From positions 1 to 52,473 of IMG/VR virus record IMGVR_UViG_2541047750_000003: a stretch of 52,473 nt of DNA; one strand, given 5' to 3'. The translations under genes and the position numbers were made by a program. The notes under the pieces are model-generated. The model was not told the DNA's origin, did no database searches, and saw only the letters and a list, made by a program, of their open reading frames with translations. Shown piece by piece: positions 45,108-49,943 of this stretch (positions within the stretch are counted from its first letter, which is position 1; every line of letters starts with the position of its first letter). Origin of the DNA: a virus (Duplodnaviria > Heunggongvirae > Uroviricota > Caudoviricetes).

Positions 45108-48100
45108 ATGAGTAGCGGCGGCGGCAAAGCCAAAACACCAACATTATTGAACGATAACCTGTATCACAAACAGTTTTATCGTGTTTTAGATATTCTCAGC
45201 GAAGGGCCGATATACGGTCCGGTAAACCAGAAAGCGCCATTGAATGACGTGATGCTTAATGACACTCCTGTTACTGACGCAAACGGGAATACATCAATTC
45301 CGGGGATTAGTATAGCCTGGCGCAACGGCACGGCTGACCAATCGCCGATTAATGGTTTTAACGCCATTGAGTCAACCGTTATTGTCAACGCAAAGGTAAC
45401 TCACGACACACCAATAATCAGGACTGTTTCAGATCCAAACATTACCCGCGTCAGGTTGAATCTTGGTGTTGATGCTCTCGTTAAGTCAGATGAAAAGGGC
45501 AATCAATATAATACATCCGTCATGTTGATGGTTGATGTTAAACCGTCATCATCTTCTACGTGGTCGCTGATTAAAGACATACACATTGGCCCTGGTAAAC
45601 AAAGCGGTGAATACCTGGAAGCTCACATCATTAAAGCGCCGGATGAAAAACCGTTTGATATTCGCGTTCGTCGCGTAACACCAGACAGCAACGGCGATCT
45701 ATTGCGGAATGATACGCGGTGGAGTAGTTACAGCGAAATAATAGATGATAATCTGTCTTATCCTCATACCGCTGTAGCTGGCGCCGTAATTGACCATGAT
45801 CAGTATACTGATACGCCTACCCGCACCTATCACCTTCGCGGCCTGATTGTTGACGTGCCTGACAACTACAACCCTGAAACGCGCACATATTCAGGTTTAT
45901 GGCTTGGTGGATTTAAAAAGGCGTATACCAATAACCCTGCATGGCTTTTCCGGTATCTGGTTAAAAACGAGCGCTTTGGGCTTGCTCGACATGCTGGTTA
46001 CATTGATGTTGATGATGGCGCTTTGTACGTGCTTTCTCAATACTGCGATCAGTTGGTTGATGATGGCTATGGTGGCCTTGAACCTCGCATGACGCTTAAC
46101 GCTTACATTACGGAGCAAATGAGCGCCCGCGACCTACTGGATAACATCGCAGGTATGTTCCGTGGTATCGCGTTATGGGACGGACAACGCCTTACCGTGA
46201 TGATTGATGCGCCACAAGATCCAATCGCCACCATCACAAATGCAAACGTCGTTGATGGCGCGTTTACTCGTTCAAGTATCGCACGCGCAGAATGCTACAA
46301 CGCCGTGATCGTATCCTGGACTAACCCTGAAAACGGCTGGGAGCAATCAAAAGAATATGTCGCAGATGATAAACTAATCGCCCGTGATGGTTATAACGAA
46401 ACCACGTTGGAGGCGTTCGGTTGCACTTCACGCGGGCAAGCGCACCGCGCTGGAAAATGGCTGATAGAAACAGCAAAACGCGAACCATCAAAATTCACGT
46501 TTAAAATGGCCCGTGACGCGATTCATTTTACGCCAGGTGATATTATCGAGATACTCGACAATAACCGCGCAGGCGCTCGTTTAGGCGGTCGTATCGTGGC
46601 TAACAATGGAAGAGTAATAACTGTCGATAAGGTTGATTCTGAATGTATCGCCCCTGGTGACACCATCAGCTTACTTGGTAGCGATGGTAAATTTAAAAAA
46701 CACCAGATCACCGGAGTTAACGGGAACAATATCACCCTTGCACACGCCCCGGCATGGATTCGTAACGGTACTGTTTTTGCTGTATCAACCAACGCAGCAA
46801 AACCCGTTTTATGTCGAATCACCAGCGTAGCAGAAACAGAAAATAACAGCGTATACACCATCGAGGCCGCACAACATGATCCACATAAGCAGGCCGTAGT
46901 CGATAATGGCGCAATCTTCGAGATTAATAACGACACGCTTAATCACTTCCGCGTGCCGAACATTGAAAATCTGAAGGTGATAAACATTGGATCCGAAACG
47001 GTTCAGTGTCGCGCAACGTGGGAAACACAGACGACAACCCGTCGCCTGACCTTTGAGATCCGCGTATATAACGCCACTGGCGCTGTAGTTAAAAGCTACG
47101 AAACTACGAATTACAGTTATGATTTTTATGGCATTGACTCAGGAATCTATTCATTAGGTATTCGCGGGCGTAATGACACTGGCATGAAGGGCGCGGAAAG
47201 TATTGTGGATCTGGTTATTGGTGCACCAGCGGCCCCCGTCGGCGTTAATTGGGTTCCTGGTGTATTCCAGGCTACCGTTTACCCGATCAGCAGAACAACG
47301 CTCACCACTGATACCAGTTATGAGTTTTATTACTCAGGTGAAACACAGATCACCGACCCGGCATCAGTAACCACTAAAGCACAATATACAGGTCGTGGTC
47401 ATCAGTGGACGTTTGGCGGCATGAATACAGGTCACACATATTACGTTTATGTGCGCACACGTAACGCTTTCGGCGCGTCAGATTTCGTTGAAGCATCAGG
47501 TAAGCCAACAGAAAACTTTGATGAAATCACCGATTACGTCACCAAAGACGTGATGAATTCAAAACAGTTTAAAGAAATGGTTGATGACATTAAAGATCTA
47601 GGCGACCGCACTGATCTTATCGAAAGCGCTACGAATGACCTTAAAACTGCAACTGGCAATCTGACCGACATAACTGACGATTTAAGGACTGAAACTGACA
47701 ACCTAATCACAGAAACAGGATCGATAAAAGCTGACACGGACACACTTAAAAAAGAAACGGAAGATCTTTATAAAAAAGTTAAGGAAAACGCCGATGATAT
47801 TGGGCAGCATGAGTCAAGAATAGACTCCCTTGAAGTATCCAGCGAAAAAGTTGGCAGCGAACTGGCGCAAGCAAAAGCAAGCCTGCAAAACGCGTCATTG
47901 GCGCTTATCAATAACTCGCTTGCACAGACTAACACTCGCGTAACTCTTACCGCTCAGTACAAGAAAGGTAGGACAGAGACGAAGGCTGAAATTGACCGTA
48001 TTGACAACGTTATCGCTGAAGAGAAAAAAGCGACAGCGGAATCACTGGAAACCATCACGGCAGAAATGAATGTGATGGACACAAACCTTAAAGGTCAGAT

Positions 48101-49943: not shown

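Follow-up and report, generated by a model that had tools for sequence, protein, structure and literature searches.

The repeats in the J-like gene described here very probably encode a greatly elongated α-helical shaft of the J central tail fibre, whose length varies by whole units. The window, that is, the whole stretch of 52,473 nucleotides that was analysed, is collinear throughout with the mEpimmI phages at about 87–88% DNA identity; mEp021-type phages cover 76–86% of each window segment, with almost no other matches, and the window is an mEpimmI-type temperate siphophage found as a prophage in E. coli. Its J protein of 1611 aa is the same as WP_021528194.1 of E. coli HVH 107 in an exact-sequence look-up, and PHROG assignments of the neighbouring ORFs, together with annotated relatives, give a gene order of tape measure and, further on, L, K, I, J and then the side fibre. 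The Pfam families FNIII-A_GpJ, Phage-tail_3, Ig_J, Ig_J_second and Phage_Tail_Tip (PF24801, PF13550, PF24421, PF24489 and PF09327) each score above their own cut-off in this protein and follow the domain order of the lambda-J-like family, with the hub, the FNIII and Ig series and then Phage_Tail_Tip. PHROG 31 ('central tail fiber J') was also assigned, and lambda gpJ (8iyk) matches with an E-value of 5e-189. On sequence grounds the protein is best regarded as a relative of lambda J rather than its equivalent, because its score with the NCBIfam model NF049904 (lambda_TipJ) was 739 bits, under the curated cut-off of 1950. The parts of the gene referred to below are the following:

45108..49943, + strand: J-like central tail fibre (tip attachment) gene, 1611 aa, from the ORF, Pfam, PHROG and the lambda gpJ alignment
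45108..47540, + strand: hub domains and FNIII/Ig domains, aa 1–811, collinear with lambda gpJ residues 1 to about 808
47511..49085, + strand: expanded, predicted α-helical shaft, aa 802 to about 1326, lambda equivalent residues 809–861
47628..47774, + strand: array of seven heptads, aa 841–889, hydrophobic period 3.5
47868..48002, + strand: head element of module 1, aa 921–965, QAKASLQNASLALINNS...YKKGRTETK, from the repeat search, module alignment and AF2
48003..48110, + strand: degenerate (seventh) 36-aa unit, aa 966–1001, with 19–25% aa identity to the good units
48111..48434, + strand: 36-aa units 1–3, aa 1002–1109, HMM i-E 1.6e-21, 2.6e-22 and 3.4e-19
48435..48572, + strand: head element of module 2, aa 1110–1155, from the repeat search, AF2 and module alignment
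48573..48896, + strand: 36-aa units 4–6, aa 1156–1263, from the HMM of the units
48897..49064, + strand: post-repeat coil and predicted coil/prism junction, aa 1264–1319, from AF2
49065..49478, + strand: Phage_Tail_Tip domain, the β-prism 'central straight fibre', aa 1320–1457, Pfam PF09327 E 1e-38
49479..49940, + strand: C-terminal receptor-binding region, aa 1458–1611, from clustering of the last 150 aa

The original prediction, made by reading the sequence, was of a repeat expansion at 47860–48860, inserted between lambda-J-like N- and C-terminal parts and lengthening the central fibre. The lambda gpJ alignment confirms this placement from both sides, as lambda residues 1–855 align to query 1–848 and lambda 839–1011 to query 1315–1499, with the flanks of the shaft at lambda 806–855 (query 799–848) and lambda 839–861 (query 1315–1337). 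Between these anchors the shaft comprises 525 aa, compared with about 53 aa in lambda, a ten-fold lengthening. The repeats lie where they had been predicted and go far beyond chance: an HMM built from the units detects six copies at i-E values of 1e-18 to 1e-22, arranged as two blocks of three, each preceded by a conserved head, and module 1 (aa 920–1109) and module 2 (aa 1110–1263) are identical at 97 of 153 residues (z = 31 against shuffles). Some dimensions had to be revised. The array extends 36 nt beyond the predicted end, with units up to 48896, and the unit measures 108 nt (36 aa) rather than ~99 bp. The repeat search found families of five and three copies at 108-nt spacing and a 59-nt pair lying 570 nt apart (47868 versus 48438); what had been proposed as a ~575-bp duplication is the 570-nt distance from one head element to the other. 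The lengths of the modules differ by exactly one unit, and the degenerate unit, absent from module 2, is the 36-aa gap in the module alignment.

At the DNA level the unit copies share only 44–69% identity, with a longest identical run of 43 bases, and the good units compared in pairs show 67–75% aa but 56–69% nt identity. Tandem Repeats Finder reported nothing on these repeats even at its lowest score, because the copies are too diverged, and the repeats are defined here at the protein level. When 1.84 billion cluster representatives were searched with a profile made from the six units, only 30 proteins scored E ≤ 0.001, so the unit is narrowly distributed; J-like domains were detected by Pfam in 2 of the seven top matches. 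The copy of Pfam used, which lacked PF28217, had no family for the shaft and gave only sub-threshold generic coiled-coil matches; PF28217 is listed for two relatives. An antisense ORF of 250 aa at 48437–49189 was also considered and rejected as a gene, the longest antisense open stretch lying elsewhere in the mEp phages.

The coiled-coil-like character that had been proposed for the region is supported by prediction, since aa 801–1320 contain no proline and AF2 models the shaft as almost all helix, with or without an alignment. The units themselves, described earlier as heptad-like, turned out to have a hydrophobic period of 3.60 in both blocks, with ten core positions per 36 residues; the strongly hydrophobic positions over 139 distinct units are 4, 15, 18, 22, 25, 33 and 36. 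True heptads occur upstream, at 47628–47774, in an array overlooked by the original prediction (ATNDLKT ATGNLTD ITDDLRT ETDNLIT ETGSIKA DTDTLKK ETEDLYK), which, at 3.48–3.54, is the only part with the period of a canonical heptad coiled coil (3.5). The single-sequence AF2 model places helices at aa 802–815, 819–951, 957–1142, 1150–1266 and 1272–1324, with breaks at KKGRT (aa 952–956) in head 1 and KGQTKTK (aa 1143–1149) in head 2; its pTM of 0.27 makes the arrangement of the helices uninformative, and the breaks could be hinges or fold-back points. When the alignment is used, pLDDT values reach 85–95 across aa 1111–1285 and the break in head 2, seen in the single-sequence model only, is gone, whereas the post-repeat coil, helical in the single-sequence run, becomes low-confidence at 1282–1305 and β from 1306. 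Both were monomer runs, and the alignment over the units was shallow, as the protein search gave few, mostly partial relatives. Further on, aa 1320–1457 form a β meander in AF2, whose best Foldseek matches are to the lambda central fibre (8xcj and 8xci).

These breaks bear on a reading that we consider improbable, in which the shaft, and especially the Gly/Lys-rich breaks of its heads, would be a docking platform holding side fibres or other tail proteins, one or two heads corresponding to one or two attachment sites. The side fibres of the F2 pyocin bind a Gly-induced kink of the shaft, with their stems filling the shaft grooves (PMC13455828), and, according to the F7 paper, side fibres may attach at non-coil interruptions; moreover, relatives carry either one or two heads, and both predicted breaks fall within heads. 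Nevertheless, the second break vanishes with the alignment, the kink is positively charged here and negatively charged in the pyocin, and the length of the side-fibre gene in annotated relatives has no obvious relation to unit number.

The elongated shaft is most likely a parallel three-stranded coiled coil, by analogy with lambda and the F-type pyocins, and its trimeric, extended geometry would follow the same model. It is built from seven heptads, two heads, six 36-residue units and one degenerate unit. With ten core positions, a 36-residue unit corresponds to exactly ten turns of undistorted helix, and a heptad to two turns, so that gain or loss of whole units would alter the length of the shaft without upsetting helix packing or reading frame. 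Neighbouring copies may recombine or slip, with units gained and lost in the process, and the number of units would then set the distance between the tail tip and the receptor-binding tip, whichever receptor-binding domain is attached. If the coil were fully extended, each unit would add about 5 nm and the shaft of the present phage would measure about 78 nm; the published description of mEpimmI phages, with ~60-nm capsids and ~130-nm tails, leaves a central fibre of 60–110 nm unmentioned, which counts against such a length. A folded-back antiparallel bundle is unlikely, since one block can change in length without the other.

Comparison of J homologs revealed that repeat number is far from fixed, as the original prediction of variation between isolates had anticipated. 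Across 48 scored relatives the unit count goes from 0 to 12, the heptad stretch changes in exact 7-aa steps (98, 105, 112, 119, 126 and 140 aa), the heads are one or two and the shaft measures 357–762 aa. In complete E. coli genomes whose J genes are 99.97–100% identical outside the array, we find 7, 8 or 9 units, differences that arise through exact 108-nt tandem copies, and the block of units 4–6 has 3, 4 or 5 copies in near-identical prophages. Similarly, mEp515 corresponds to mEp021 minus 1002 nt, in frame. The change in copy number is an in-frame length polymorphism. Among the draft assemblies (IMG/VR loci), collapse of repeats whose copies are identical for >150 nt could account for some of the variation; the same variation in unit number is, however, seen in finished genomes and sequenced phages.

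The suggestion that the repeats might serve phase variation is not supported by the sequences, and a phase-variable contingency locus or an assembly artefact is now hardly credible as an account of the region. The presence of tandem repeats is all that speaks for either. The changes are whole in-frame units (21, 108 or 1002 nt), all of them in-frame multiples of 21 or 108 nt, with no short frame-shifting tract, and the J frame is open in 41 of 41 related loci, as far as the contigs allow. As for an artefact, the units of the window, 44–69% identical as DNA, share no more than 43 identical bases running, so reads cannot collapse them, and the same architecture occurs in finished genomes and sequenced phages.

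The length of the shaft is independent of the type of receptor-binding end. DNA similarity to the closest relatives ends near gene position 4190, and clustering of the last 150 aa indicates that this end differs in type from those of the LamB- and OmpA-typed mEp phages. Unit counts vary widely within every receptor-binding cluster, the OmpA users mEp021 and mEp515 having 12 and 4 units and the LamB users 4–12, and unit number showed no link with receptor type. This independence, the single-unit differences between near-identical prophages and the ability of both mEp021 and mEp515 to plate on K-12 strains of E. coli via OmpA would also fit neutral drift, where any whole number of units is tolerated as a by-product of recombination-prone repeats and infection is unaffected. 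We regard drift as rather unlikely, since the unit protein is conserved despite heavy synonymous divergence and pure drift does not predict that the heptad and 36-aa-unit arrays co-vary in length, as they do (Spearman 0.92 over 23 lineages). When independent contrasts were computed on a tree built from the 330-nt inter-array spacer, r was about 0.7, the two lengths changing in the same direction in 11 contrasts and in opposite directions in 2. A tree built from the first 2400 nt of J gave r 0.11 and was set aside because the shaft recombines as a separate cassette, so that this tree misses the history of the coil. The length of the elongated shaft may have an effect on fitness.

A further possibility, to be taken seriously although we would not favour it, extends the elongated-shaft explanation without opposing it: the 36-residue units would be a metastable coil which, like the 163-residue coil of the F7 pyocin, turns into β-prism on receptor binding. 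Each unit might make one β-hairpin, the change of fold would draw the tail tip towards the membrane and cause it to open, and the number of units would set both reach and stroke. The J coil adjoins the β-prism N-terminally, AF2 giving helix and then β meander, and is homologous to the pyocin coil, with units 4–6 and the post-repeat coil aligning to residues 912–1087 of the F2-pyocin fibre coil (E 2.5e-8). Moreover, the SxSxxMxxLxS motif described for the switching coil (PMC12874032) occurs 25 times in aa 801–1337, compared with 6.7 ± 2.6 in shuffles (z 7.2; the expression is permissive and the matches are non-independent), and is unenriched in the heptads, the tape measure protein and the rest of J. 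Its M and L positions fall on the core positions 15, 18, 33 and 36 of the unit, whereas its S positions are non-core and occupied by small residues, with Ala at 89–99% at positions 3, 5, 10 and 20, Ala/Thr/Ser at 12 and Ala/Ser at 31. The invariant E7 and the 95% conserved R11, four residues apart, fit the buried Glu/Arg pairs that have been reported. The motifs switch between forward and reverse orientation with a period of 36 aa, and their 21-residue forward-to-reverse offset is the same in the 33-aa units of a solved fibre (9l9p_S). The junction at aa 1306–1329, equivalent to lambda 841–861, is helix in one AF2 run and β in the other, the best structural matches of the AF2 model are to the open state of the lambda fibre, and a fold switch would account for how the tube, some 78 nm away from the membrane, could reach it.

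The match to the coil-to-β-prism motif is suggestive, and several observations weigh on the other side. All the units stay helical in AF2 with the alignment, at pLDDT above 85 (in a monomer run where the alignment is shallow), and only aa ~1306–1329 differs between the two monomer runs. The permissive motif expression includes a match at aa 1327 that spans a predicted turn, while the 18 in-unit matches are copies of one another and thus not independent. The source for fold switching is a preprint in which the step to phages is likewise predicted, extensive switching is not seen in lambda and T5, and the conserved alanines could have another role, in close packing or in docking a further protein. 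That the units are modular fold-switch elements, making this phage group a natural series of 'springs' with 0 to 12 units, seems to us doubtful though conceivable. Were it true, copy number would tune receptor reach together with the distance and energy of the stroke to the membrane, and the heptad 'spine' and the switching part would co-evolve in their lengths.

Differences in the length of these repeats had received a brief mention for this phage group. The mEpimmI group comprises mEp021, mEp010, mEp013, mEp044, mEp515 and mEp554 (Front Microbiol 2025, PMC11893012), a study that reported J proteins of different size whose C-terminal part 'contains repeats of different length (positions 950-1,475)' and left undefined the 36-aa unit, the heptad array, the single-unit polymorphism and the co-variation. 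The present allele is the same gene, with the same L-K-I-J-lipoprotein-side fibre synteny and 84–89% DNA identity over most of J, but lies outside the published set, combining 7 heptads with 3+3 units in a way of its own and ending in a receptor-binding region of another type. The unit grammar, the co-variation of the two arrays and the suggestive match to the fold-switch motif are new. In lambda gpJ the shaft, residues 809–861, joins the tail-tip FNIII domains to the β-prism and receptor-binding domain (domain definitions from PMC11101478; PDB 8IYK, 8XCG-8XCK). It occupies the same site, between FNIII-2 and the β-prism, its two halves match the flanks of the expansion, and its residues 841–861 have the same helix-or-strand ambiguity; however, it is one short three-helix bundle, whereas the present shaft is ~10 times longer, repetitive and variable in length. 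The coils of F-type pyocins, of 163 residues and switching to β-prism in F7 (PMC12874032) and solved as a three-stranded coiled coil in the homologous F2 shaft (PDB 25vf, PMC13455828), are likewise directly N-terminal to the prism, with a similar density of SxSxxMxxLxS and a Gly-containing kink that interrupts the coil. The present coil is two to five times longer, with near-perfect tandem units in variable number; the receptor-binding domain, a separate protein in the pyocins, is part of J here, and switching in this phage is putative.

If length proves irrelevant, the region would be simply a tolerant spacer. An in-frame unit that preserves register also offers a straightforward principle for designing phage or tailocin fibres of a chosen length. 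Changes in length through in-frame intragenic repeat recombination are familiar from other surface coiled coils, namely streptococcal M proteins and the stalks of trimeric autotransporter adhesins, which are bacterial, unrelated in sequence to the J shaft and under immune selection, the M protein being dimeric. Non-contractile phage tails have no obvious motor, and recent work proposes that the coiled coil of the central fibre stores energy for membrane penetration. In this regard, the mEpimmI group provides natural near-isogenic variants with shafts differing only in unit number, such as the OmpA-using pair of mEp021 (12 units) and mEp515 (4 units), or the prophages with 7, 8 and 9 units, which would permit a direct test of how shaft length relates to reach through O-antigen or capsule, to adsorption rate and to the triggering of DNA ejection.

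The whole repeat region lies in a single long ORF encoding a protein of 1611 aa, named 'central tail fiber J' in PHROGs, for which Pfam recovers the complete lambda-J domain series:

45108-49943, + strand, J ORF, 1611 aa
aa 88-214, FNIII-A_GpJ (Pfam)
aa 335-492, Phage-tail_3 (Pfam)
aa 609-707, Ig_J (Pfam)
aa 709-811, Ig_J_second (Pfam)
aa 1320-1457, Phage_Tail_Tip (Pfam)

Tape measure, L, K and I proteins are encoded upstream of J (PHROGs). The window is collinear with the mEpimmI temperate E. coli phages mEp021, mEp010, mEp013, mEp044, mEp515, mEp554 and MagusPhagus (~87-88% identity), with almost no matches elsewhere, and an identical J protein occurs in E. 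coli HVH 107 (WP_021528194.1, the sole member of its 90% cluster), which together indicate that the window is a prophage of this group. Residues 1-855 of lambda gpJ align to residues 1-848 of the window J and 839-1011 to 1315-1499, bearing out the original prediction of repeats inserted between lambda-J-like N- and C-terminal parts. In lambda, an alpha-helical shaft built as a three-helix bundle (residues 809-861) connects the FNIII domains with the beta-prism, on which the receptor-binding domain sits (PMC11101478). With both alignments flanking the repeats, the entire repeat region is an expansion within the equivalent of this shaft, which comprises ~53 residues in lambda gpJ but ~525 in the window J.

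The shaft holds two kinds of repeats, heptads upstream and 36-aa units downstream:

aa 841-889, nt 47628-47774, + strand, heptad array, seven true heptads
aa 966-1001, degenerate seventh 36-aa unit
aa 1002-1109, nt 48111-48434, + strand, first block of three 36-aa units (unit HMM)
aa 1156-1263, nt 48573-48896, + strand, second block of three 36-aa units (unit HMM)

A DNA repeat search returned copies at 108-nt spacing and a further pair offset by 570 nt (47868 and 48438); at the protein level six clear units were recognized (HMM i-E 1e-18 to 1e-22), each block of three being preceded by a conserved head element (QAKASLQNASLALINNS...). The two resulting modules (aa 920-1109 and 1110-1263) are identical at 97 of 153 aligned positions (z = 31 versus shuffles) and differ in length by exactly one unit. 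The tandem repeats first noticed in J are real, but they had been measured inexactly: the unit spans 108 nt and not ~99, the supposed ~575-bp duplication corresponds to a head offset of 570 nt, and the seven heptads had been missed. Tandem Repeats Finder reported no repeats in the window because the units have diverged to 44-69% DNA identity, and no identical run exceeds 43 bases; this same divergence makes an assembly artefact implausible here. A 250-aa antisense ORF (48437-49189, - strand) spans the repeats and was rejected as a gene: the longest antisense open stretch sits elsewhere in mEp phages, which indicates a by-product of the codon composition of the repeats.

Comparison with seven sequenced phages, 41 IMG/VR loci and six complete E. 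coli genomes revealed from 0 to 12 units, one or two heads, and whole shafts of 357-762 aa. The heptad-bearing part shows only lengths of 98, 105, 112, 119 (the window J), 126 and 140 aa, that is, exact 7-aa steps. As had been anticipated, repeat number varies between isolates: in complete E. coli genomes, J genes of 4971, 5079 and 5187 nt, 99.97-100% identical outside the array, differ by exact tandem copies of one 108-nt unit, which bring their counts to 7, 8 and 9, and the mEp515 J equals that of mEp021 minus 1002 nt, in-frame and between two similar units (flanks 99.8% and 97.8% identical). The window J itself has one heptad and one unit fewer than its closest relatives (~95% identity). 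Phase variation, in turn, is not borne out, because nothing turns J off, its frame being open at all loci compared. Between I and J, mEp021 and mEp515 carry a 567-nt ORF (1937-2503 in their loci, L003 and L004), annotated as a putative HNH endonuclease and a hypothetical protein, respectively, and absent from the window and the other relatives.

A consensus of 139 distinct units pooled from all relatives shows strongly hydrophobic positions 4, 15, 18, 22, 25, 33 and 36, with positions 8, 11 and 29 filling out a core spacing of 4-3-4-3-4-3-4-4-3-4 (ten core positions per unit). The measured hydrophobic period is 3.60 in the units versus 3.5 in the heptad array. As an undistorted helix completes ten turns in 36 residues and a supercoiled one two turns in 7, gain or loss of whole units would leave helix packing unchanged. 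Several results point to the repeat region being a helical shaft. No proline occurs across aa 801-1320, and AlphaFold2 without alignment predicts helix all along the shaft, interrupted briefly at aa 952-956 and 1143-1149, both within the heads, and at aa 1267-1271. With a 39-sequence alignment, a single helix is modelled at aa 1111-1285 (pLDDT 85-95) ahead of a beta meander, the lambda central fibre being the top structural match. The head breaks of the single-sequence model (nt 47961-47975 and 48534-48554) are Lys/Arg/Gly-rich and recall the Gly kink where side fibres dock on the F2-pyocin shaft; the second is gone in the alignment-based model.

Heptad-part length (98-140 aa) and unit count (0-12) increase in parallel, with Spearman coefficients of 0.87 for 48 proteins and 0.92 for 23 lineages, delimited by the spacer (330 nt) that separates the arrays. 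Since a tree from the first 2400 nt of J showed the shaft moving as a separate cassette, independent contrasts were computed on the spacer tree (r 0.68-0.72, p ~1e-4 to 3e-4; same sign in 11, opposite in 2). Very recent unit changes (7/8/9 units; mEp515) come without heptad changes. Relatedness is corrected for only roughly, so the co-variation is a lead; selection on total length might explain it, as might structural coupling of both parts.

In the F7-pyocin central fibre, a 163-residue coiled coil becomes a beta-prism on cell contact, a conversion reported to be needed for killing; the 2026 preprint describing it defined the motif SxSxxMxxLxS and predicted that many siphophage fibres switch likewise (PMC12874032). 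That the shaft units are linked to fold switching of this type is possible rather than probable. The homologous F2-pyocin coil aligns to units 4-6 plus the post-repeat coil (E 2.5e-8), and the shaft holds 25 motif matches versus 6.7 expected, an enrichment absent from the heptads, the tape measure protein and the rest of J; the expression is permissive, however, one match runs across a predicted turn, and those within units are mutual copies. Buried motif positions coincide with the unit core, and 'small' ones with non-core positions bearing small residues (Ala 89-99% at 3, 5, 10 and 20; Ala/Thr/Ser at 12; Ala/Ser at 31), and the invariant E7 and R11 (95%) form a conserved pair compatible with the reported buried salt bridges. 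The junction segment (equivalent to lambda 841-861) is helix in one AlphaFold2 run and beta in the other, although the alignment-based model, a monomer, keeps the units helical with high confidence. In the solved J-like fibre of PDB 9l9p (chain S, residues ~878-1010), tandem 33-aa units (REVIATETEALSREIDQLKAQIGDDIQASLTDI) place forward and reverse motif matches 21 residues apart, just as the 36-aa units do. Two proteins from a cluster-representative search also carry the unit: P0013 (1219 aa, tail-protein-like, no Pfam match) has seven 36-aa units that keep the 'QAIADExxAR' core but have a Gly/Pro-containing second half, and P0014 (1922 aa), a distant J-like protein with FNIII-A_GpJ (aa 92-219) far from Phage_Tail_Tip (aa 1769-1903), matches the unit profile in 12 stretches. 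Judging by these profile matches, the unit is not confined to the mEpimmI group.

OmpA is required by mEp021 and mEp515, and LamB by mEp010, mEp013, mEp044 and mEp554 (PMC11893012); their unit counts are 12 and 4, and 9, 4, 12 and 12, respectively. When all complete J proteins were clustered by their last 150 residues, every receptor-binding type covered a wide range of unit counts, indicating that receptor specificity and shaft length are separate modules. The window J falls outside both experimentally typed clusters and groups with four relatives (L027, L028, L031 and L038); its ~95% DNA similarity to the closest prophages is lost from J position ~4190 onward (window 49297-49940), which places a mosaic junction between shaft plus prism and receptor-binding domain. 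Directly 3' of the J stop (49948-50222 region), a GC-rich hairpin bears T-runs on both strands and resembles a bidirectional terminator. The ORF that comes next is convergent, encodes 82 aa with a signal peptide and an LTGC lipobox, and is probably one of the lipoproteins linked to superinfection exclusion in mEpimmI phages (PMC11893012). Further on, a 598-aa side-fibre gene (50400-52196) carries the 'phage head spike fiber' domain NF048003, of a kind described for gene transfer agents; its length in relatives (~450 to 1160 aa) shows no evident link to the number of J units.

A 2025 description already mentioned that mEpimmI J proteins differ in size, with 'repeats of different length' at positions 950-1,475 (PMC11893012), so the feature is known for the family and the window allele is a new member. 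What is new is the 36-aa unit as the correct unit and its register, the heptad array with its 7-aa steps, the single-unit polymorphism among otherwise identical prophages, the independence of unit count from receptor type, the co-variation of both arrays and the possible tie to fold switching. As a tail-fibre length polymorphism this is an ordinary observation; its interest lies in a natural graded series with which the use of a central coil by a non-contractile tail could be tested.
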